Assembly (NCBI GenBank): GCA_002269645.1
Contig: NIVC01000827.1
Span: forward strand, 62,001 to 126,000
Source of the DNA: Macrostomum lignano
Taxonomy: Eukaryota
Length of the DNA: 64,000 nucleotides
Reading direction: 5' to 3'
Position numbers and translations under genes: made by a program. This document shows, piece after piece, positions 3,061 through 46,437 of this stretch (position 1 is its first letter; each line of letters starts with the position of its first letter). The notes under the pieces were generated by a model that worked only from the letters and a program-made list of their open reading frames with translations, was not told where the DNA came from and ran no database searches.

Positions 3061-3689
3061 AAAAATGAGTTGTCTGTATGTATGTATGTGGGTAGGTAGG
3101 TATGGGATAGATTTCAGAAAAAATCTGAAATCGTTTCAGAAGTCGTTTCAGAAAAAACGACTTAACCGATTTTCTTCAAACTTGACACATTTGATCAGAA
3201 ATTTTCCTGGCACGGTACATGCATCTTGGCTAAGAAATCGCTCAATTTTAAAGGGATTAAATATTCGAAAAACATGCTTTTTTGCAAAGGTCAAGCAAAA
3301 TTTTCGACTTTAAATACAGTGTAAGAATGCTAGAGAAAAAACTGACTGGCTGAATTCTGATTCTGATTAAGATTGCATCACAACAAGAGGAAAACAGTGT
3401 CGAAAAAATGCACACAAGACTTGATTGTAATTGTGTAACCATATTGCTAACTTGAATTGAGACTGATACTGGCTGACTGAGAAATTAATTGTCATAACTT
3501 TTTACTTAACCGACTTGCTATAAGAAATGAATTTTAAGGGCCACAATTCATGTTCTCCAATTAAAAAGAGATAGCCTAGATGCGAACAGACTGGACTGCT
3601 AATGTAGCGACCTGGGTTTGAAGCTTAGTAGTGCAAAATAATTTTTTTATTAAAACACTTTACAAACACAAAATGCTAAACATAAAAAA

Positions 3690-6600
3690 GCGCAATGTCA
3701 AACATAAAAGTAGCACCATGTCGAACATCAAAGAGCCACAAAGTCAAAGATTAAATAGGCACGATATCAAACATTAAAGAGGCACAAAGTTAAACAATAA
3801 AGAGCCACTATGTCAAACATTCAAGAGCCACAATGTCAAACATCAAAGAGCCACAATGTCAAAGATTAAAGAGCCACCATGTCAAAAATTAAAGAGCCAC
3901 AATGTCAAAAATAAAAGAGTCACCATTTTAAACATTCAAGAGCCACCATGTCAAACATATGCGTGACTCCATGTCAAACATTAAAGAGCCACCATGTCAA
4001 ACAATAAAGATACACCATGTCAAAAATTAAAGAGCCACAATGTCAAACATTAAAGAGCCACGATGTCAAACATTCAAGACCCACCATGTCAAACATTAAA
4101 GGGCCACCATGTCAAACATTAAAGTGCTATCATGTCAAAAATTAAAGTGCTATCATGTCAAACATTAAAGTGCTACCATTTCAAACATTAAAGTGCTACC
4201 ATGTCAAACATTAAAGAGTCACCATGTCGAACATCAAAAATTAAAGAGCCACGATGTCAAAAATTAAAAAGCCACCATGTCAAACATTAAAGGGCCACCA
4301 TGTCAAACATTGAAGTGCTATCATGTCAAACATTAAAGTGCTACCATGTCAAACATTAAAGAGCCACCATGTCGAACATCAAAAATTAAAGAGCCACAAA
4401 GTCAAACATTAAAGAGCCACTATGTCAAACATTCAAGAGCCACAATGTCAAACATTAAACATCATGTCAAACATTAAAGAGCCACCATGTCAAACATTAT
4501 GTCAAACATTCAAGAGCCACAATGTCAAACATTAAACATCATGTCAAACATTAAAGAGCCACCATATTGAACATTAAAGAGCCACAAAGTCAAACATTAA
4601 AGAGCCACCATGTCGAACATCAAAAATTTAAGAGCCACAAAGTCAAACATTAAAGAGCCACTATGTCAAACATTCAATAGCCACAATGTCAAACATTAAA
4701 CATCATGTCAAACATTAAAGAGCCACCATGTCGAACATTAAAGAGCCACAAAGTCAAACATTAAAGAGCCACCATGTCGAACATTAAAGAGCCACAAAGT
4801 CAAACATTCAAGAGCCACAATGTCCAACATTAAACATCATGTCAAACATTAAAGAGCCACCATGTGGAACATTAAAGAGCCACAAAGTCAAACATCAAAG
4901 AGCCACGATGTCAAACATTCAAGACCCACCATGTCAAACATTAAAGGGCCACCATGTCAAACATTAAAGTGCTATCATGTCAAACATTAAAGTGCTACCA
5001 TTTCAAACATTAAAGTGCTACCATGTCAAACATTAAAGAGCCACCATGTCGAACATCAAAAATTAAAGAGCCACAAAGTCAAACATTAAAGAGCCACTAT
5101 GTCAAACATTCAAGAGCCACAATGTCAAACATTAAACATCATGTCAAACATTAAAGAGCCACCATGTCAAACATTATGTCAAACATTCAAGAGCCACAAT
5201 GTCAAACATTAAACATCATGTCAAACATTAAAGAGCCACCATATTGAACATTAAAGAGCCACAAAGTCAAACATTAAAGAGCCACCATGTCGAACATCAA
5301 AAATTAAAGAGCCACAAAGTCAAACATTAAAGAGCCACTATGTCAAACATTCAATAGCCACAATGTCAAACATTAAACATCATGTCAAACATTAAAGAGC
5401 CACCATGTCGAACATTAAAGAGCCACAAAGTCAAACATTAAAGAGCCACCATGTCGAACATTAAAGAGCCACAAAGTCAAACATTCAAGAGCCACAATGT
5501 CAAACATTAAACATCATGTCAAACATTAAAGAGCCACCATGTGGAACATTAAAGAGCCACAAAGTCAAACATCAAAGAGCCACGATGTCAAACATTCAAG
5601 ACCCACCATGTCAAACATTAAAGGGCCACCATGTCAAACATTAAAGTGCTATCATGTCAAACATTAAAGTGCTACCATTTCAAACATTAAAGTGCTACCA
5701 TGTCAAACATTAAAGAGCCACCATGTCGAACATCAAAAATTAAAGAGCCACAAAGTCAAACATTAAAGAGCCACTATGTCAAACATTCAAGAGCCACAAT
5801 GTCAAACATTAAACATCATGTCAAACATTAAAGAGCCACCATGTCAAACATTATGTCAAACATTCAAGAGCCACAATGTCAAACATTAAACATCATGTCA
5901 AACATTAAAGAGCCACCATGTCAAACATTATGTCAAACATTCAAGAGCCACAATGTCAAACATTAAACATCATGTCAAACATTAAAGAGCCACCATGTCA
6001 AACATTATGTCAAACATTCAAGAGCCACAATGTCAAACATTAAACATCATGTCAAACATTAAAGAGCCACCATATCGAACATTAAAGAGCCACAAAGTCA
6101 AACATTAAAGAGCCACCATGTCGAACATCAAAAATTAAAGAGCCACAAAGTCAAACATTAAAGAGCCACTATGTCAAACATTCAATAGCCACAATGTCAA
6201 ACATTAAACATCATGTCAAACATTAAAGAGCCACCATGTCGAACATTAAAGAGCCACAAAGTCAAACATTAAAGAGCCACTATGTCGAACATTAAAGAGC
6301 CACAAAGTCAAACAATAAAGAGCCACCATGTCAAACATTAAAGAGCCAGCAAGTCAAACATTAAAGAGCCACAAATTCAAACATAAAAGAGTCACCATGT
6401 CAAAAATTAAAGAGCCAGCAAGTCAAACATTAAAGAGCCACCATGACAAACTTTCAAGAGCCACAATGTGAAACATTAAAGAGCCACCATGTCAAACATT
6501 AAAGAGCCACCATGTCAAGCATTAAAGGGATTTCAAGTTCAAACATTAAAGAGCCACCATGTCAAACATGCGTGACTCCATGTCAAACATTAAAGAGCCA

Positions 6601-6876
6601 CCATGTCAAACATTAAAGAGCCACCATGTCAAACATTAAAGAGCCACCATGTCAGACATTAAAGAGCCACCATGTCATACATTCAAGAGCCACGATGTCA
6701 AACATTCAAGAGCCACGATGTCAAACATTAAAGAGCCACGATGTCAAAAATTAAAGAGCCACAAAGTCAAACATTAAAGAGCCACAATGTCAAACATTAA
6801 AGAGCCACAATGTCAAGCATTAAAGAGCCACCATGTCAAACATTAAAGAGCCACAATGTCAAACATTAAAGAGCCT
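3690..6876. repeat. Minisatellite array, 23-bp consensus AAAGAGCCACCATGTCAAACATT, with higher-order repeats
   Basis: More than 100 degenerate tandem units. The variant block cgatgtcaaacattcaagacccacc recurs at 4061, 4906 and 5583. Confidence 0.95.
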
Positions 6877-6984
6877 TAAATGTTGGAAATTCTGGAACTC
6901 ACGTTGAGTGCGCCGTCTGTCCGCCAGGAAGCAAAGTGGCAGCAATGCCGGATGACGCTACAGCAAGAGCCACTTCAGCAAAAG

Positions 6985-26145: not shown

Positions 26146-27182
26146 AAAACTTAAGAACTTTGCCTAGGCCACCCAAGCTCTCTTCTAAAGTAGCTGTGTG
26201 GTTCTAGTTCTAATTCTAAATAACCGAATTCAATATCGAAAAAAGCCAAAAATCCAAAAAAATTAAATTGTAATTTTGCAATATATTACTGCATACTGTA
26301 ATCAATATATTTACATATAAAATACTGTAATACATTAATATTATTTATTTAACTGTTCCTGAGCAGCTTCCTTGCCTTCTTCTTTAAAATAACTTGCTCA
26401 GATAGGTATTAGGTAAATTTCTTTCTTCACCGGAGACCATCTGCACAAAAACCTCCTACAAAGCAAAGAGATTCCAATCAGATTCGCAATCGACTGCTTC
26501 CCGACTAATAATTTCAACTCCCAAAAAAATTCAAAGCTTTTTGTACTAAACTTTGTGAAGTGCGCAACAAAATTATCTAAATTTTAGTATTTTAATATCT
26601 TTCTTGTAGTAATAATTAGTCAACAGCAATGTCTAAATTACCTACCTTTACTAAAAAAGAGGTTGCGAACGCGGCTGAGCCACCAGCCAAAAGGCCAAAT
26701 AATAGGCAGTCCACGGACTTGCGACAAAATGAAAGAGCAATGGTCACGCCGCAGCTAAGGCAGGCCCCTGGCCGCACGTCGGTCCCGCCGGCAGAACGAC
26801 GGCGCCTTTCCCAAGGTGCCTCGGCAAAGACCACGCCCCCGCTGGAACCAGAAGTCCTTGAGCCCGGCTCGGATAATTCCTTGCCGGCAACAACGGCGAC
26901 CACCACTCCGAATTCACCGATTCTTGCTAACCCGACAGAAAGATCAAATTCACCAGGCAGCACCATATCAATCTCGTCGGCGAGCGGCTCTGCGACTGTG
27001 TTGGAAGGAGCTGGCCAAGCTGGCTCCAATGACCCCAACGCAGCCGCAGCAGCATCAGAATCTGATTCTGCCTCCGTGGCAGATTCTGCGCGCGACGTCA
27101 ACGTTGACCTGGATGCCGAGGACACTAGCATACCCTACGAGAACCCAATCGCTTTTCCAAGACAAGACAAGACAAGACCGGC

Positions 27183-28085
27183 ATGATATCTAAGTTGCCC
27201 AGCCAAGACGTCCGCCTGGTCTACTATCCAAATATGCTACGTAGTGTTGCCACCGATGACAGGCTAGTTCAAGACCTTCTTCCAATAGCTGTGAGACATC
27301 GGCCCCAGGAACAGCGTCGAGTTGTGTGGTACGGCCTGGAGTATTCTTATTCCGGTGTCCCGCTTGGCGCTAACCTGAAGTGGCACCCATTAGTAGAAGA
27401 TATGCGAGATTATCTAGAGCTCAATGCGGACATAAACGCACCTAAATTCAATAGCTGCCTCATCAACTTTTACGAATCGGCAGATGATTGTATACCTTAT
27501 CATGCTGATAACGAACCAGAGCTTGGCCAAGACCCCTTCATTGCTACGGTCTCCTTCGGAGCCGTGCGCCAGTTCTTGGTCAAGAATAACGAGGATCAGC
27601 GTGTAATTGCCCAATTTGAGACCAAACCCGGCTCGGTGATCGTAAAGTCGGGAGCCTGTCAGCAAAGATGTAAGCACAGTGTCCCAGGAGTCGGCGTGCA
27701 GGAGGGTGTACGCATCTCACTCACCTTTAGGGTGACCCATCAACCTGGCGTCGGCACACCGGGGCACGGAGGCGCGACAGCGGCAGCAGCACCCGTCGGG
27801 GATGGGCCTGGCAGAGGCGGGGCGGACTCCGGTCCTGCTACGCCGGGCCCCCGGACGAGCGTGGCGACCGGACAACCAGGCAGCAGTGGGGCGGCCGGCG
27901 CGCCCGGCCCTGCTGCGCTTGGCAGTTCCCGCAACCAAGTCCAAGACCGTAGCGGCAACGTTGGTGCGGGGCGCGGTGGCGCAGCTCAACGGCCTAACAT
28001 CCAAGGGCAACGCCCGAGCTACGCTGACCAGGCCAACCAATTCCAAGAACGGCTACCTTGTCTTCCCAGCGACGCCCAGAGATAA
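27183..28085 (+). CDS. Complete AlkB-family (ALKBH2/3-like) dioxygenase domain of LINE B + G/A/P-rich tail
   Basis: RRVVWYG..YSYSG, FNSCLINFY, YHADNE (HxD), IATVSFGAVR, KHSV (distal His), RISLTFR. Confidence 0.92.
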   Translation: MISKLPSQDVRLVYYPNMLRSVATDDRLVQDLLPIAVRHRPQEQRRVVWYGLEYSYSGVPLGANLKWHPLVEDMRDYLELNADINAPKFNSCLINFYESADDCIPYHADNEPELGQDPFIATVSFGAVRQFLVKNNEDQRVIAQFETKPGSVIVKSGACQQRCKHSVPGVGVQEGVRISLTFRVTHQPGVGTPGHGGATAAAAPVGDGPGRGGADSGPATPGPRTSVATGQPGSSGAAGAPGPAALGSSRNQVQDRSGNVGAGRGGAAQRPNIQGQRPSYADQANQFQERLPCLPSDAQR

Positions 28086-29273
28086 TCAGATCTTCCTCCG
28101 AGGGCCGCTGAAGGAGCCGAACATAAATGGTGTACCAGTTAACCGTAGACTGCCTAATGCCAGACCAACGTATAACAGACCCGCTGACCGGCCACCTCCA
28201 GTCCAATCGGTGCACTCTGTAGTAGTCCGGGGAGTGCCGGTCGAGATTGAGATGCCGGCGTTCATTCAGCACCTGCGGGAGGACGTGGGCTTGAAGGTTG
28301 TCTCCGCGAGCCGCATCACGTCGCGAGCGCGCAACGAGCCGACTCACTTCGTCCGCCTATTCCTACCAAATAAAGCCACTGCGGATGCTTGCCTGGCGAC
28401 AGGCATCGTATCGCAGTTCACGAGGTATGCCTGCGAACCAAGCAAGACGGCTGCTCCGGCTAGGGCGCTCCAGTGTCATAAGTGCCAGCGTTTCGGCCAC
28501 AGCGCGAATCGGTGTCGTGCTGCTCCGCGCTGCAACATCTGTGCGGCGGCGCACCGCTGGCAGGAGTGCCCGAATCCGGACGAAGCCAAATGTGCGAACT
28601 GGGGCGAGGCCCATCGAGCCAATTACAGGAACTGCATTGTAGCTGCTGAAAAGCACAGCCAGGCGGCCCGGCGCGCTGCAGCCTACCAAGCCGGCGCCCG
28701 GGAAGCCGCGGCAGCAGTGCAAGCAGCAGCTCCGCCACCAGTATTAGCAGCAGCAGCGACTGAGCGAGCTGCACCAACAATAGCGACGGTGTCGGCAGCA
28801 GCAGCAGCAGCAGCGGCGCCACCCGCCCCCGCACCGCGACCAGCTTTGGTGACTGCGCCTAGACCAATCGAGACCGCTGCACGGGCGTCAACGGCTACGG
28901 GGGGCACCGACGACTCGTCCTGGCTAACCGGCCCCGGCCTCCCTAGTCGAAAGCGCCCTGTGCGCGACTCGGTTGACTCTGTGACCCAGACGCAGTTGCC
29001 AAGTGATCCGCCGCCAAGTAATGACGTGCTGCCTAACATGCTCGCTGCCATGGAAGCTATGGTGAGTGGCTAGTTCAAGCGCTCGTAGAGGTGCTTACGA
29101 TCCTCTTGCCGAGCCAGGCCGAACGGCCGCCTACTACTGAAGGCACCGGTCAAACGCTGCAGGATGTAGTAGGTAGGGTTCTGGCCTGGGCCCTTGCAGG
29201 AGGGTCGGAAGGTCACCAAGGTCTCGGTCAGCTGCTCTGCGCCCCCCGGCGACAGGTGGATGGCCAGACCTAG
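27802..29273 (+). pseudogene. LINE B gag-like ORF1 (stop/frameshift near 29071)
   Basis: CHKCQRFGHSANRC, CNICAAAHRWQEC, CANWGEAHRANYRNC. The segment GYLVFPATPRD..PLK aligns with LINE A GYIVTPEHPKD..PLK. Confidence 0.9.
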
Positions 29274-29289
29274 AACGAAATAAATTAAT

Positions 29290-31280
29290 AATGTTCGGTA
29301 ATATTAATAACGGGCACGATAGCTCTAACCCCACTGCCTCAGGGCTCAAGATCGCCCACCTGAACTGCAGGGGGATAATAAATACCGAAATTAAAAGAAC
29401 TCAGGCTCTGGGTCTCAGACCACAAATTAGATATAGCGTTGTTCTCTGAGACCATCCTGAAAAATACCCAAGTATGCACATTCCCGGGCTATGCTGCAGT
29501 GCGGTTTGACCTTCCAAGTACGAAGCGCGGACTCCTCCTCGTACACACCCCACGGGTTAAGGTAGCTGATGTCCAGCTCTCGTACGACAACATTAACCAT
29601 GAGGTTCTTACCTGCACAGTCACCCCTCTTGACGGCGCTTGCGCTGCCTTTAAACTGGCCTTGATCTATCGGTCTCCATCGCCGGACAACCTTGATGTCA
29701 GTCTTTTGACTCGGCTGTCCTAGGCCAAATACTCTCTTGTTATGGGTGACCTCAACGCCAGGCACAATTTCTTGGGGGGCGACAGTCGCAATAACAGGGC
29801 TGGCCAACAGCTTCATGACTGGCTCTGCCGCGACCCTACAAATCGTCCCACCGTTCTAAACCAACCAGGTCAGTTCACCAGAATAGCCCATCGACAAGGA
29901 ACGGTCTCCCGAAATGTGCTGGACCTAGGTCTGGCCTCCAGTGACCTTGTCCCCTACATCCAGGACTTCAAAGTGGGTGACGACCTGAATAGCGACCACC
30001 TTCCAATTATTCTTACCTTGGCAAGCAACTCCCCAGACTGGCAAGGGCCAGAGAAGGCTCGAAATTTTGCTAAAGCCAACTGGGAGGAGTTCCAAAATAG
30101 CCTTATGGAAAAAGATCGACGCATGGCCTCCAGACCTTAGAACCAGGCAGCAGATTGATGCGGAGGTCGACTTCATCACCGGCGCGATCCAGGAGACTAT
30201 CGAAGAAAATGTCCCGGTCAGAAAAAGCCGTAGAGCCCTCCCCCAGAGGATCATTGCTATGATCAAGGAGAGGAGAAAGCTTCGGCGTCTGTACCATAGC
30301 ACCAGGGACGACAACTTCATGCTCCTCGCGAATAGGAAGGCGAAGGAAATAAAAGCGCCATTCGTTCGTTTGAGCAGGGCCAATTCACCAAATTGTGCGA
30401 GAAAATAGTTGAGAAAAGTCAGTGTCGGAATGTCAAGGACTTCTGGCAGGACACAAAAAATTAATGGGGCGCAAAAAGGGCACCACTTTTCCGTCCTTGA
30501 ATGATAGCGCCACCCTCGCACACACAGACTCTGACAAGGCTGATATGCTTGCGAGAGCCTTAGATGCCAAAATGCGCCCGATCCCGTCTACGGATGACGA
30601 GCTGAAGAAGAAGGTTGAGCAGACTATGAAGCTCCCACTCTTCAGACCTGTCCCACCCAGCGCGGAACCGCACATGGGCCACCCCCTGGAGGCTCCTATC
30701 TCTGTTACAGATACCCTCTGGGTGTCGCGACTTTCCTAGTCATTTCTTAGTTCACCTTCAATTGTCTCTGTTTACTCCATTTTCTCTCTCGCTGTCTAGC
30801 TCAATCTTGTTATTCTTATCTCTCTCTCCCTTGCTGCGTTCTGATTGGCTCTCCGTTCTCGCCTCTTTCCTCAGTCGCGCACTCCACCCCCTCTCTTTAT
30901 TATTCTGGGCTCAACCCCCCAAAGTTAAATGTTCTATAAATATATCGGTTTGGGCCCTGCGCCCACTTACTGCTCATCCTGCTCCTTCAATTTAACTCCA
31001 ATTAAATAGTCTTTAGTTTAGTATTTTTTCTACACTGGGAGCTGGACCATCTAAAGGTAGACAGCGCTCCGGGCCTGGACAAGGTGCCAAACTGCGTCCT
31101 GAAATATGGCCTGGAGTCCATTGCGGTTACACGCATAACCAAGCTCTTTAATGACTGCTACCGGGCAGGGATCTTCCCATCGCAATGGAAGAAAGCAGTA
31201 GTCACCATGATCCCGAAGCCGGACAAACCGCCTGAATCCCCGGGTTCCTATCGGCCCATCAGCCTGACCTCCTCCCATCA
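29290..31280 (+). pseudogene. LINE B ORF2: endonuclease + N-terminal RT, split by a solo LTR
   Basis: HLNCRG, FSET, MGDLNARH, SDHLP; TLWELDHLKVDSAPGLDKVPN restored after removing 30723-31039. Confidence 0.9.
30723..31034 (+). mobile_element. 312-bp solo LTR with 5-bp TSD CTGGG
   Basis: TG...CA termini, CTGGG at 30718-30722 and 31035-31039, internal CCAAT (reverse) and TATAAATA. Removal restores the LINE reading frame. Confidence 0.85.
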
Positions 31281-31525
31281 GCCTGGTATCTGTGGTGTAT
31301 CGCACACTGAGATGCACTATAGTTTATATAAGTTCAAGTTCGTTATTCAATGCCGTTCGTTTGCACTAATCGCCTCTAAGCATTCTATCGCTACAGTTTC
31401 TTCTATGGTAATTAACCCAGCCCAAAGTTGCTAGAGCTCACCTTTTTGATCTCTTTCAAATAAGAAATAAAAAGAATCTTAAGCTCATGAGTTAAATACT
31501 TCAGCCGGAGTTCAATTCACAACAA

Positions 31526-31572
31526 TGGCGTCGCGAGCAGGATCCGAACCTGCGCGGGGAAACCCCATTGGA
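31526..31572 (-). other. Extended 47-nt PBS = reverse complement of the 3' part (positions 39-76, including CCA) of a mature tRNA-Ser
   Basis: Reverse complement TCCAAT GGGG TTT CCCC GC GCAGG TTCGGAT CCTGC TCGCGAC G CCA. It has a perfectly paired T-stem, a long variable hairpin, G73 and CCA. Confidence 0.9.
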
Positions 31573-31616
31573 CTCCCCATTGGCAGCTAATAATTACTAG
31601 CTGCTGGTGGCCCGGA

Positions 31617-32510
31617 ATGCAACAGGACGTTGCCCAGTTTGTTCGACGCTGTCCAGACTGCTGCAGGCTTCGGCCTCAACTCGGCCACGACAGGGATCGC
31701 TGGCCTCCATCAACGTATCCGTTCCAGCGCGTACACATGGACTGGGCATACGTAAAAGGCGCTGAAAACATCCTGGTCATCGTGGATTCCTTTTCCGGCT
31801 GGATAGAAGCCTTTCCTTGCCGCGATCGCACAGCTGATTCAGTCATTCAGTGCCTGCGTACCGTATTCACACGGTTCGGCGTCCCCGAGCTGGTGGTTTC
31901 GGACAACGCCCCAGAGTTCACTACTGAAGTGCTCACATCGTGGCTCCGCGCCAATGGTGCCAAGAAGCTCGAGTCACCTACCTATTACCCGCAGGCGAAT
32001 GGAGCCGCAGAAAGGGCCGTTCAGACCGTCAAGTCCGCACTAAGGGCCTGGTCTAAAAAAATTACACACATGGAGTTTAGCCGCTTCTTGCAAAAGGTCC
32101 TCCTGCACCACAGAAACTCAGCCTCTTCGCGGGGCTGCTGCCCAGCCGAAATTCTCTTTGGACGGCGACTCAGAGTCCCGGTGGTGACCAACTTCGAACA
32201 GGGTGACAGCGTGATCTATGCGCCAAGCAGCTCCTCAGTCGGCAACCCGGCAAAGTTCGTGATGACGGCAGGTCAAAACACAGCGTGGATCCTCGCTGAC
32301 GATGGGCTTCGCCTTGCAAGCACGAATCAACTTGCCCCAATGGCCACCTGGCCATCGGAATTCGAGATGGAGGACGAAGATGAGACTAACAGCGTGCCAG
32401 AAACCGGAAACGAGCCAGTCGCAGGGATTCAGACACCCGTGCCTGAAGAAGCCGTTCAGCTGAGAAGGAGCCTCAGAAACCGATCCGCTCCTGAGCGCTT
32501 TGTGCCTTAA
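31617..32510 (+). CDS. Gypsy-type integrase (partial zinc finger + intact DDE core)
   Basis: WWPGM..CPDC, VHMDW, IVDSFSGW, VSDNAPEF, PQANGAAERAVQTVK; uninterrupted 297-codon ORF. Confidence 0.9.
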   Translation: MQQDVAQFVRRCPDCCRLRPQLGHDRDRWPPSTYPFQRVHMDWAYVKGAENILVIVDSFSGWIEAFPCRDRTADSVIQCLRTVFTRFGVPELVVSDNAPEFTTEVLTSWLRANGAKKLESPTYYPQANGAAERAVQTVKSALRAWSKKITHMEFSRFLQKVLLHHRNSASSRGCCPAEILFGRRLRVPVVTNFEQGDSVIYAPSSSSVGNPAKFVMTAGQNTAWILADDGLRLASTNQLAPMATWPSEFEMEDEDETNSVPETGNEPVAGIQTPVPEEAVQLRRSLRNRSAPERFVP

Positions 32511-32849
32511 ACTGGTATCCGAGGAGGGTTGAAAAAAACGCGAAACTAATGAAACGACATGAAACGACTTCACTGTTCCAATTGACATCTTCTGAATATA
32601 GGGAGGGGCATGTGGTGTATCGCACACTGAGATGCACTATAGTTTATATAAGTTCAAGTTCGTTATTCAATGCCGTTTGTTTGCACTAATCGCCTCTAAG
32701 CATTCTATCGCTACAGTTTCTTCTATGGTAATTAACCCAGCCCAAAGTTGCTAGAGCTCACCTTTTTTATCTCTTTCAAATAAGAAATAAAAAGAATCTT
32801 AAGCTCATGAGTTAAATACTTCAGCCGGAGTTCAATTCACAACAGTATC

Positions 32850-33175: not shown

Positions 33176-34162
33176 TCAAGTCAAGTGAATTGTCTGAATT
33201 GGATGAATCATGTTAAGCTTCACCTTCCTCTCAAATGCATAGATAATGTACAGGTCCACGGGTGTTGCGACAATCCTCTTAATGTTAGTCACGATATTCA
33301 CAGGGCTGTTATCAGTAGGCATTTGTCTGGCAGACACATCAGCGCCAAACATCGGATATAAAGTTCCATATTGAAGAGCAGTGATAGCAATTCCATTGTT
33401 CTCTTTCACAGCCAAGTCGACCAACTCGCTGTAAAATTTGCTAATCTTGTTCTGACTGAAATCTCCATTTTGTGGCAGTGCAGGGTAAAGATTATCACTG
33501 ATTTCATGCTGAATGGACCGCACGTCTCCATGCATGTAGCGTATAATGCTATTTGGGTTTTTCATGTTAATAATAATATACCTTGGATTGCTGCATGATC
33601 CCTCTTTAATGCAGATGTTTGTTCTAGTTTCGTTTCGCTCATCTCGACACATGTAGGCCGTGTATGCAACATCAATGTCCTTCTCTATTGCCTTCAGATA
33701 ATCCGCTTTTAGTGCGGTCTTTGGCTCAATGACTTCCAAATACAGCTCGATTCCGGTTAGCTTCACCTCCATCCTAGTGTGGTCCGCCCCAGTCCACAAC
33801 ACTCTACTGCGATCATCTCTAGTCAGTCTAAATGTGTAGCTAAAGTTACTAGTCAGTCGATTAAATGTATTACAGAATCCACTCATAAATCTCAATGGTA
33901 CAAATACATCAACAGACCGATACAGCAGGTTCTTAGCAGCAGCATCAGCACCTTGCAATGTATAGTTGTATCTCTTCTTCCTATTTTTATAGCCACTGTC
34001 ATTGATATCTCCTTCTTTTTTATCTGCAATAAAACCCGCACCACTTCCCAACTGAATAAAATCAGGATTCTCGATCAAACAATGAGGGTCATATACAATT
34101 CCAAAGTTGGCGATTCGCTCCAACTCAGTGCTCCCATTCGATACACTAAACTCCTTGAACAT
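33176..34162 (-). pseudogene. Polinton major capsid protein (double jelly-roll type), 5'-truncated
   Basis: VPLRFMSGF..FRLTR, LYP..DF..FYSEL, YPMFGADVS and YAFER patterns; immediately upstream of the penton-like ORF, with the same order at 45010-46437. Confidence 0.75.
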
Positions 34163-36388: not shown

Positions 36389-36852
36389 GAGGGGGAGGTG
36401 TAATAGGACATTATTTTTAGGAACAGGAGTTATTGTGGGTTTAATTGTGCTTTTTGCCTACTATCAGTAGTTCAGCCCGGGAAAATAATTAAAGCGGGGG
36501 TAAATCGCTAGTTTTGGGTTCTCTAGAACTACATGGGCAGTTTGGCCCTCGGAAAAGCATCCTCGTTGCGATCCATTGCGATCTGACTTAGAAAAATTCA
36601 CAAAGGAAGTGGTAAGAAGGGGAACAGGAAAATATAAGGGTTAGGATTGCACTAGAGGAGTCTTGTTTCTAATATTGGGAGTCTTGCCCAACGCACATGA
36701 ACGGGAATAAAAACTAATGTAAAATAACCTTTTGTACGCATTTCTTTTATTATTAAATATTTCCAAAACTGTTAACTATAATCTTTGGTGTCCTGACTAA
36801 CTTCTTTAATCTAATTACTAGAATTAGGGAAATCAGGAGCCTGGTGGCAGCG
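36389..36852 (+). mobile_element. PPT - LTR - PBS (tRNA-Leu type) junction
   Basis: GAGGGGGAGG at 36389-36398, TGTAAT at 36399, AATAAA inside, TGGTGGCAGCG at 36842-36852. The 3' half is homologous to 43255-43495 plus 47163-47199. Confidence 0.75.
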
Positions 36853-44215: not shown

Positions 44216-45009
44216 AATGTCGTTACGATACGCTTTAAGACTTTAAGACTGCATTAATAGATATTTTTACGTATGGTATTTTTGCTGTGTGGCGGGTGGG
44301 TGATAGCGGAATGGGTATGGCAGCTTTTTCTTGTCATAGCGCGAGCGGCGTGTGCAGCATAGAGAAAAAAGCTTTTGCCCAGCTCAACCCTAACTAGCTC
44401 AGAAGATCCCTTGCCTAGCTTCAGAAACGCCCATTTAGTTCCTTGTTTAAACCCCCAGCCTTTTCAACCCCCAGCTCTTTCAGCAGTCTTCCTAGATCTT
44501 TCCCAGGCAACCCCAATCAACCATTAATAGAAAATACTGGCTATAAGTAGAAAATCTGCGGGTTTCCCTTCTAGAATTCGAATTCTAGAAAATTCTAGAA
44601 TAAAAATAAAATCCATGGATTCCCGCGCCCACACCAATGGTATATATACAGCCGATTCACACCGCCCCTCGCCTCGCCTCGCCCCTCGCCTCGCCTCGCC
44701 TTGCCTGCCACACTGTATAATACACTGAGAAAAATTGCTAGAGCTCTTAAAGAGTCTCAGATTATCAGCAAAGCTATATCCTCTCTGAGTATGGCCGAAA
44801 CAATCGCCAGTACAGGATTAACTGACGATATGGAAGGATTATTGACAAAGGATAAAACTGAAGCGAAAGCTTTCTTCGAAGAACTTTTGAGAGAGATTCC
44901 TGACGAACGAAAAGAATTTTGGTGTGATAAAGTCAATTCAACTTGGGACTTGGAAGGATCATCAATTCGACTGGAAGACCTCTTCACTGGAGACAACGAC
45001 GAAGTGCAG

Positions 45010-45554
45010 TGCCAAAGACTGCACTAAAAGCTGATTATCTTAAGACAATAGAGAAGGACATTGATGTTGCATACACGGCCTACATGTGTCGAGATAAGCG
45101 AAACGAAACTAGAACAAACATCTGCATCAAAGAGGGATCATGCAGCAATCCAAGGTATATCATTATTAATATGAGAAACCCAAATAGCATTATACGCTAC
45201 ATGCATGGAGACGTGCGGTCCATTCAGCATGAAATCAGTGATAATCTTTACCCTGCACTGCCACAAAATGGAGATTTCAGTCAGAATAAGATTAGCAAAT
45301 TTTACAGCGAGTTGGTCGACTTGGCTGTGAAAGAGAACAATGGAATTGCTATCACTGCTCTTCAATATGGAACTCTATATCCGATGTTTGGCGCTGATGT
45401 GTCTGCCAGACAAATGCCTACTGATAACAGCCCTGTGAATATCGTGACTAACATTGAAAGGACTGCCGCAACACCCGTGGACCTGTACATTGTCTATGCA
45501 TTTGAGAGGAAGGTGAAGCTTAACATGATCAACAATTCATCCAGTAAAGTTTAA
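45010..45554 (+). pseudogene. Polinton major capsid C-terminal half
   Basis: Nearly identical to the C-terminal half of 33176-34162 from PKTALKADYL onward; fused to an unrelated upstream ORF by deletion. Confidence 0.8.
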
Positions 45555-45573
45555 ATATTTTTTAGGACAAAAA

Positions 45574-46437
45574 ATGGAAGCGATTGCTGAAAGACTAAAT
45601 AATATTGTTTCTCACTCTAAGGAGAGCATTCCTATTACAATAACTGGGCGAATTAATGACTCAAACGGGATGTTTGTTGAAAAATTAGAGCAGGCGATTC
45701 GCCTGGATCCTGGCGCTAATTACCATGTCTATCTTAACGACTTCACTGGTTGGTCAAACGTTCCCAATGTGATGGCAGCAAATAATATGTTTTATTACAA
45801 ATGGAAAGGTGCAGCAGCAGACCCTGTGGTATTCCATGTGAGCACGCAAAGTGTGGATACCTACAATAAATTTCTAGAAAATGTCTTTACTAAGAGAGGC
45901 CATTTTGAGACACCTGATGCGAGTAAGCCAGAGAAGAAACTGTTCCCTGTTAAACTAACCTATGATCTCACTGTAATGAGAGTGGTCATGCAAGTTCACA
46001 AAGATGCGGAGGTTGAGTTTAAAGATGACACTTGGTATAGGGAACTGGGATTCGAGAAGAAAGTTTATAAGGCAGAATCCGCGGCGCGGACCGCCACTCA
46101 AGCATCGTGGACTGTTAGAATGGTCCGGGAAAGTGTAAGCGGTTTCTTCTTAGCACCCAATATTGCAGACATTGTAAAGGGTTTGAATATTCTAATCAGA
46201 AGCAATCTCAGTCTTGATTGGGTATTTAAGGGAAAGCGAACGAATATTTTGTACAACATCTCCAACTCTGTTGCTGGAGGACAGATGGTGGTAGAGAAAC
46301 CAAATCCAGTGAAAAGAGTTGTATTGAGTAATAAGGAGATTCACGAGATTGTGCTACAGTTTGAGACTGAAGATGGGATGAGTGTTGATTTCAATGGTGA
46401 AGAGTTTGTATTGACGTTAATCATTGAGAGAATGTAA
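45574..46437 (+). CDS. Polinton minor capsid (penton), intact 287 aa
   Basis: AIRLD..YHVYL..SNVPNV..NNMFYY at the N-terminus; GQMVVEKP..IHEIVLQF..G..VDFNGEEFVLTLII at the C-terminus. Single jelly-roll pattern, directly after MCP. Confidence 0.8.
   Translation: MEAIAERLNNIVSHSKESIPITITGRINDSNGMFVEKLEQAIRLDPGANYHVYLNDFTGWSNVPNVMAANNMFYYKWKGAAADPVVFHVSTQSVDTYNKFLENVFTKRGHFETPDASKPEKKLFPVKLTYDLTVMRVVMQVHKDAEVEFKDDTWYRELGFEKKVYKAESAARTATQASWTVRMVRESVSGFFLAPNIADIVKGLNILIRSNLSLDWVFKGKRTNILYNISNSVAGGQMVVEKPNPVKRVVLSNKEIHEIVLQFETEDGMSVDFNGEEFVLTLIIERM

Follow-up and report, generated by a model that had tools for sequence, protein, structure and literature searches.

CCA-ended tRNA copies that run past position 58 behind LTR ends in the Macrostomum lignano genome

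In retroviruses, plus-strand synthesis extends over 18 nt of the primer tRNA and halts before m1A58, and longer minor products cannot transfer (PMC13191261, PMC8599865). The overrun plus-strand strong-stop products described for HIV-1 and MLV stop at Psi55, m5U54 or ms2t6A37, or copy the full tRNA (PMC13191261, PMC8599865). The role of m1A58 as the plus-strand stop in vivo has been debated for decades (PMC8599865), and nearly all tests of this stop have used HIV-1, MLV or the yeast Ty elements.

Here we followed up a locus in a 64,000-nt stretch of the M. lignano genome (the window; assembly GCA_002269645.1, contig NIVC01000827.1, positions 62,001 to 126,000, forward strand). A sequence-only reading of the window had noted 47 nt complementary to a tRNA-Ser directly behind a 5' LTR, with a single mismatch at position 58, and had proposed that a reverse transcriptase (RT) had read through m1A58.

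A deleted Gypsy copy with 47 nt of tRNA-Ser

The locus at 31291-32844 of the window is an internally deleted, 1,554-bp Gypsy LTR copy with the following features (window coordinates):

31286..31290, +, left target-site duplication (TSD), 5 bp, identical to 32845-32849
31291..31524, +, 5' LTR, 234 nt, TG...CA, a direct repeat with 2 differences from the 3' LTR
31525, spacer of 1 nt between 5' LTR and tRNA copy
31526..31572, +, 47-nt antisense copy of mature tRNA-Ser(CGA), positions 76 to 39, with the non-encoded CCA; 46/47 identical to host gene plus CCA; in place of the family's 10-nt primer-binding site (PBS)
31544, +, C opposite tRNA position 58 (A58 in the gene), the sole mismatch of the copy and a putative m1A58 misincorporation
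31573..31586, +, junction insert, 14 nt, in which 9 nt from the end of the tRNA copy recur as a direct repeat; its last 3 nt also precede the siblings' resumption site
31587..32510, +, integrase remnant: part of the H2C2 zinc-binding domain, rve core and C-terminus (Pfam PF17921, PF00665)
32600..32608, +, polypurine tract (PPT), assigned from sequence, 2 nt before the 3' LTR
32611..32844, +, 3' LTR, direct repeat of the 5' LTR
32845..32849, +, right TSD, 5 bp, identical to the left one

The hallmarks of a Ty3/Gypsy element (TG...CA LTRs, PBS, PPT and TSD) are thus all present. Upstream of the integrase remnant about 2.84 kb, comprising gag, protease, RT and RNase H, is missing; the copy resumes at nt 3085 of its 4,343-nt siblings, inside the integrase zinc-binding domain, and the size of the gap was corroborated by a public contig with 2,847 nt across the same interval. 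Integrase is the only coding part kept and is 98% identical to a sibling integrase, with private differences of 2/234 between the LTRs and 9-17/1,015 against siblings. A function for this single copy is not likely. The junction itself rests on one assembly: contigs from four public runs covered the LTR and the integrase and none spanned 31568-31589, which is no evidence either way since contigs drop rare variants. No word of at least 9 nt from the 14-nt insert was found in two 4.3-kb siblings.

Read in reverse complement, 31526-31572 agrees with the host tRNA-Ser(CGA) gene with C67 (3 loci, ARAGORN) plus CCA at 46 of 47 positions, so the extent proposed from the sequence, from CCA76 to 39 starting 1 nt after the 5' LTR, was exact. 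The three matching CGA genes lack CCA and end in T-rich trailers, and a control search with the reversed pattern returned 0 matches, which excludes a chance origin of the tRNA match. The proposed identity, Ser(CGA/UGA), narrowed to CGA, as the variable arm and C67 fit the CGA genes and the TGA genes differ at four variable-arm positions. The base that follows the copy does not pair with tRNA position 38, in agreement with the proposed end.

Position 58 alone differs, with A in the three host CGA genes and G implied by the element (base 19 of the PBS, 31544, is C), confirming the predicted mismatch. This C can come from neither the siblings nor the gene, since the siblings have A at base 19 and the gene would give T. 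A single mismatch in 47 nt would fall on position 58 with a chance of 1 in 47. A58 was found in 18/18 host Ser(AGA/CGA/TGA) gene loci and 24/24 Ser(GCT)/Leu loci (41 of the 42 inspected in sequence, one taken from a printed match), and the three CGA genes match the copy at its other 46 nt, as had been expected of host genes under read-through. The host tRNA set was not drawn from the Rfam tRNA search, which scored 63 candidates only.

An LTR-end pattern search gave 21 junctions, of which 17 belong to the family of the window element and four, each with one mismatch, to another family. The PBS is 10 nt in 15 of the 17, its first bases overlapping the start of gag, 15 nt in one deleted copy and 47 nt in the window copy. 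The long PBS therefore occurs only in the deleted window copy, with 10-15 nt in the 16 siblings, and is not a family trait. Two refutations had been named for the read-through proposal, a host gene with G58 and a family-wide 47-nt PBS; both fail, given A58 at 42/42 loci and the short sibling PBS. The siblings measure about 4.3 kb, and 5-bp TSDs flank most of those inspected. In one 4.3-kb sibling, Pfam analysis of the natural frame placed protease at 299-386, RT at 469-628, RNase H at 691-820 and integrase at 926-1083, the PR-RT-RNaseH-IN order of Ty3/Gypsy. The sequence-only reading had also listed further PBS in the window, 9-11 nt long and of Leu type: 11-nt matches to the tRNA-Leu(AAG) 3' end with CCA do occur at 36842, 47189 and 56444, but none is preceded by a CA end.

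The Gypsy copy lies beside a broken LINE at about 26620-31273, one of an abundant class in this genome. The LINE fragment breaks off at 31273-31290 with a short local duplication and abuts a capsid-like repeat just left of the TSD, placing the Gypsy copy almost on an older rearrangement junction. The right flank of the element is a repeat with two inverted occurrences, at 33176-34162 (-) and 44931-46437 (+), and its capsid-like (double-jelly-roll) match is weak (E 1.4e-4, below the Pfam cut-off). Within the broken LINE, 27129-28085 (+) encodes an AlkB-like 2OG-Fe(II) oxygenase domain (PF13532, E 1.9e-21) that precedes LINE frames labelled from motifs as zinc-knuckle, endonuclease-like and RT-like; the genome holds 150 matches to this domain, many of them within frames of 700-1,000 aa and frequently arranged in tandem. 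Both m1A and m3C are removed by AlkB enzymes (PMC5066629), and AlkB has been reported in an orchid Gypsy element (PMC9289625), the one case, and not in a LINE, that our literature search on AlkB in retroelements returned. Long tandem arrays with a 23-nt period and a PIF1-like helicase fragment occupy 3580-6900 and 626-1297 of the window.

Recurrence of the tRNA copies and their errors

Searches with position 58 left free gave 34 Ser(AGA/CGA/TGA) loci and 32 Ser(GCT)/Leu loci, in which 17 of the 24 CCA-ended copies carry a base other than A at 58, compared with 0/42 gene loci. Generic scans for CCA-ended T-arms behind an LTR-type end (87 distinct matches inspected, most of them without a paired T-stem) added one Lys and one Tyr copy. 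When loci with shared flanks were counted once, this genome held 15 independent events in which a CCA-ended tRNA copy follows an LTR end. All begin exactly at CCA76, 0-3 nt after the LTR-type end. Position 58 is misread in nine (T in five, G in three, C in one) and A58 is kept in six. Letters below are in tRNA sense:

Event A (window), Ser-CGA: G at 58; ends at 39
Event B, Ser-AGA: T at 58, G at 34, T at 32; ends at 23
Event C, Ser-AGA: T at 58, G at 34, A at 32; ends at 28
Event D: A at 58; ends at 35
Event E, Ser-TGA: A at 58; ends at 33
Event F: G at 58; ends in the variable arm
Event G, Ser-GCT, 81 nt: exactly three differences, at 58, 32 and 26
Event H: C at 58, then indels
Event I: T at 58; ends at 28
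Event J: T at 58; ends at 33
Event K: A at 58; ends at 37
Event L: A at 58; ends at 33
Event M, Leu-AAG: differences at 58, 34 and 26
Event N, Lys-TTT: A at 58
Event O, Tyr: A at 58; ends at 39

The AGA assignment of events B and C rests on G34, which inosine would explain; their alignment to the rarer CGA genes with T67 is just as good. Two LTRs were confirmed in nine of the 15 events, and two events have LTRs that are 100% identical. The LTR of event K is 99% identical to that of event J, Gypsy pol lies downstream in events H, L and N (inverted in H), and for events I and O the support consists of LTR-like ends and local structure. Overruns thus recur across the genome, and the earlier single-copy description had missed this recurrence together with the I34, m3C32 and m2,2G26 signatures described below.

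Several events other than the window copy occupy 2-4 loci. These loci share about 0.8-1.1 kb upstream of the PBS, reaching past the LTR wherever its length is known, which marks them as segment or haplotype duplicates and not new insertions. No daughter with new flanks was found in this assembly for any of the 15 events. The suggestion that the element had fixed a read-through product therefore holds in that the product is present, but it is present as a single deleted copy in this assembly, from which no re-transposed daughter was found.

The tally excludes seven further tRNA-like CCA types, three Glu and four diverged or SINE-like, which all have A58 and for which no LTR was shown; adding them gives position 58 misread in 9/22. 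The three Glu(CTC) types (L302, L303 and L304, on contigs C1626, C566 and C259) were dropped as events on this ground, and the four diverged or SINE-like matches likewise. One of the Glu(CTC) copies is full length and abuts an oppositely oriented Glu(TTC) fragment; in human cells Glu(CTC) is hypomodified at 58 (PMC5066629). A search for overrun copies of tRNAs of the A52-T62 type returned 58 matches, with 26 in the control; beyond the T-arm none of them resembled a tRNA. At L183 (contig C2635) a pair of related Tyr-primed LTR ends, 160 nt apart and pointing towards each other, comes with a 271-nt inverted repeat, and one of these ends has a 38-nt overrun copy.

Across events A-N, mismatches occur at 58 in 9/14 copies, as A34 to G in 3/3, at C32 of Ser copies in 4/5 and at G26 in 2/3. 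Together, 18/25 of these positions are mismatched, compared with 7/741 elsewhere (Fisher p = 2e-25; under the rule used for copy ends, A is 2 nt and J 4 nt longer). Because some T-arm positions were fixed in the search patterns, the background is lowered; positions 26-34 were left unconstrained, and at the free positions of the patterns the background is 1/224. The dominant mutation sites in tRNA-seq are m1A58, m3C32, m2,2G26 and I34, which is read as G (PMC5066629). Several copies end just 3' of 32, 26 or the D-loop, which are also known RT stops in tRNA-seq (PMC5066629), and the order T5 > G3 > C1 at position 58 fits the low C signal reported in RT misincorporation when m1A is followed by A (PMC4787781). 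By analogy, the errors at 58, 34, 32 and 26 match the tRNA-seq signature of m1A58, I34, m3C32 and m2,2G26, with the modifications of the host assumed from those of other species. The overrun copies are likely to record tRNA modifications as misread by the element's own RT. For the window copy, read-through of m1A58 with misincorporation is well supported by A58 at 42/42 host loci, short PBS in the siblings and the misreading of 58 in 9/15 events.

The end of the window copy at 39 had been taken as the record of a bulky modification at position 37, which was not established. None of the 12 copies covering 37 is mismatched there, and all four other Ser(AGA/UGA) copies that reach it pass without error. 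Over the 15 events, two end at 39 (window and Tyr), one ends at 37, ten pass cleanly, one passes with indels and one ends earlier, with no reproducible RT stop at 38/39. A pause at position 37 is possible for the window copy. The idea that two modifications were recorded is thus well supported for position 58 and weak for position 37, given clean read-through in ten other copies.

In four other overrun families the sibling PBS was 15 nt in 10/10; 10 nt in 9/10 with one of 20 nt; 14-18 nt in 11/11; and 14 nt in 3/3. PBS base 19 was surveyed at 92 PBS-like sites from 90 loci among 185 matches. In the 62 sites that match a tRNA over at least 18 nt, base 19 is C in 35, T in 10, G in 9 and A in 8. 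For ordinary 18-nt Ser PBS in clusters of at least 3, minority letters made up 8/40 at base 19, 12/40 at base 10 and 0-3 at bases 20-45 (rough clusters, uncorrected for kinship). Base 19 behind the 18-nt Ser PBS varies within families (C/A, C/T, A/T/C and C/G; L038-L067, L237-L296), as frequent incorporation of a base opposite m1A58 by RT would predict. Base 10 also varies within families, tracking T67/C67 isodecoders. Directly after the 15-nt PBS of a Ser(GCT)-primed family (L407-L416), at nt 16-28 after the LTR, 11/13 nt can pair with the tRNA D-arm; this second stretch may reflect a bipartite primer interaction. At L239 (contig C105) one LTR end is followed by three tandem PBS-like units.

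Proposed origin of the copies and alternatives

The window tRNA copy most likely arose, with a probability of roughly 0.85, when RT failed to stop at the methylated A58 of its primer and the overlong strand was joined to a wrong internal site. In this scheme, plus-strand strong-stop synthesis would run into the primer tRNA while it is still attached, and with a PBS of 10-15 nt, shorter than the 18 nt up to m1A58, the end of the plus strand would always overhang. RT would sometimes bypass m1A58, inserting dC or dA, and continue to a later block or pause. The overlong 3' end could not pair with the PBS and would be joined elsewhere on the minus strand, by microhomology or, in the window copy, with a short slipped insert; the two-LTR product would then integrate normally as a dead-end copy. 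Seen directly in the window copy and its family are a tRNA copy that includes CCA, its one mismatch, a deletion of 2.84 kb and short PBS in the siblings, and 14 further events accompany it.

At the junctions, the distance from the LTR downstream to the point where sibling sequence resumes is 16 to 453 nt in four other families; in the window copy it is about 2,850 nt. One event has 11/13 nt of homology between the copied tRNA D-arm and the element leader at the point of resumption, and three others have 1-3 nt. At the window junction the tRNA copy ends without microhomology; the 14-nt insert with its 9-nt repeat follows, then 3 nt common to the siblings. A fold-back origin of the three bases after the copy, which equal tRNA-sense 32-34, was rejected as chance-level, one of these bases belonging to the duplicated word. 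Intermediate forms were also found: overruns of 15-20 nt with deletions in the same families, an 18-nt PBS followed by inverted pol, and the variable base 19. We infer a graded failure of the m1A58 stop, in which long overruns survive only when mis-joined.

The tRNA sequence could instead have been written after integration, by host repair of a break near the PBS that copied the PBS-annealed tRNA (by a LINE RT or polymerase theta) and was end-joined downstream. Modifications would then still be recorded, by another enzyme. The 14-nt insert with its 9-nt flanking repeat resembles the templated insertions of alternative end joining, which host cells also make, and LINEs are abundant, with one flanking the element. 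Repair is nonetheless improbable, as all 15 events start at CCA76 within 0-3 nt of an LTR-type end, where element replication must copy the primer, and the same families contain the shorter overruns with deletions. The D-arm homology at one junction also argues against it, as do the two events with 100% identical LTRs, which leave little time for a later repair event.

A genuine overrun that read an unmodified A58 correctly, with the mismatch at 58 arising afterwards by point mutation or through faulty assembly, is highly improbable. The window copy does have private differences, its site is known from one assembly and spanned by no contig of the four public runs, and A58 is kept in 6/15 events; yet the single mismatch had a chance of 1 in 47 of landing on 58, the same change is present in two other events, and six more have T or C. 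That the primer came from a host tRNA-Ser locus encoding G58 and missing from the assembly is hardly credible, with A58 at 42/42 gene loci. The assembly, in 5,269 contigs, may be incomplete, and one Ser-TGA-type event has T67, absent from the three TGA genes found, but the wrong letters T, G and C are spread over three amino-acid/anticodon groups, so that several missing genes would be needed. We give next to no weight to a reading in which the long PBS is inherited and under selection in the family, or marks a non-autonomous subfamily that replicates. Several other events do occupy 2-4 loci, but these are segment or haplotype duplicates, and only 1/17 family junctions has the 47-nt PBS; this reading is refuted for this assembly.

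Significance and relation to known systems

If RT overrun is the source, the copies show the outcome of stop failure in an animal germline and which letters a Gypsy RT probably places opposite four modifications. They point to one way in which deleted non-autonomous copies and tRNA-like genomic fragments arise, and DNA alone would allow tRNA modifications and the use of primer isodecoders to be inferred for organisms that lack tRNA-seq. They also raise the question of how second strand transfer is completed in elements with a PBS of 10-15 nt. We lean slightly towards a broader view, with recurrence evidence from the M. lignano genome, in which animal genomes would be a minable archive of tRNA modifications and mis-transferred Gypsy copies would be germline single-molecule tRNA-seq reads made by endogenous RTs. 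Most of the writing would be done by short-PBS (Mag-like) families, with PBS base 19 as a mark of m1A58 under constant rewriting. Any assembly would allow such an archive to be read for m1A58, I34, m3C32 and m2,2G26 in the very tRNAs that served as primers, and LTR divergence would date its entries.

With the Mag lineage of Ty3/Gypsy the window family shares short LTRs, a length of about 4.3-5 kb, a 5-bp TSD and a tRNA-Ser/Leu PBS (PMC3286476), as well as the lack of env; the likeness is one of traits, whereas lineage membership is defined by RT phylogeny. The Helenus TRIMs and cqgypsy_1 of Culex are likewise LTR elements with long tRNA-derived sequence (PMC10886601, PMC3286476). In Helenus, however, a degenerate tRNA promoter lies inside both LTRs as a family trait (PMC10886601), whereas the window tRNA copy lies outside the LTR, occurs once and is antisense, and the window element has no tRNA-derived Pol III promoter in both LTRs of the kind that defines Helenus/TRIMp3. 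The element cqgypsy_1 carries two whole tRNAs and was likened by its authors to a Twin element (PMC3286476). As described in those texts, neither system is a one-off antisense primer copy with errors at modification sites. Ty1 and Ty3 are reported not to inherit primer sequence (PMC5371799), while the overrun families here appear to do so.

The error pattern is the same as the RT signatures of tRNA-seq (Hauenschild 2015; Clark 2016, DM-tRNA-seq; PMC4787781, PMC5066629), with m1A58 read as T or G, I34 as G, and mismatches and stops at m3C32 and m2,2G26. Unlike tRNA-seq reads, these copies were written in vivo, likely by endogenous RTs, with one molecule per event, and are stored in chromosomal DNA.

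The window copy has the traits of an overrun and strand-transfer deletion: a start at CCA76 at the LTR end, extension past 58, absence from siblings and then a 2.84-kb deletion. Pulsinelli and Temin (1991, J Virol 65:4786) reportedly described strand-transfer deletions in retroviral vectors that start at the PBS through errors of plus-strand transfer, with capture of cellular sequence. By that account, their mutants came from single-round experimental vectors, whereas those described here are natural germline copies. Retroviral precedents thus exist, and in the literature searched, mainly open-access papers from 2000 onwards, no report was found of genomic LTR copies that preserve modification-site errors. 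As in the HIV-1 and MLV overruns, in which RT copies the primer tRNA past m1A58 and the longer products fail normal second strand transfer (PMC13191261, PMC8599865), the window copy runs past position 58. The retroviral products are intermediates seen in vitro or in cell culture that fail to complete; the Gypsy copies described here are integrated and inherited, mis-joined, and with their misread letters preserved.
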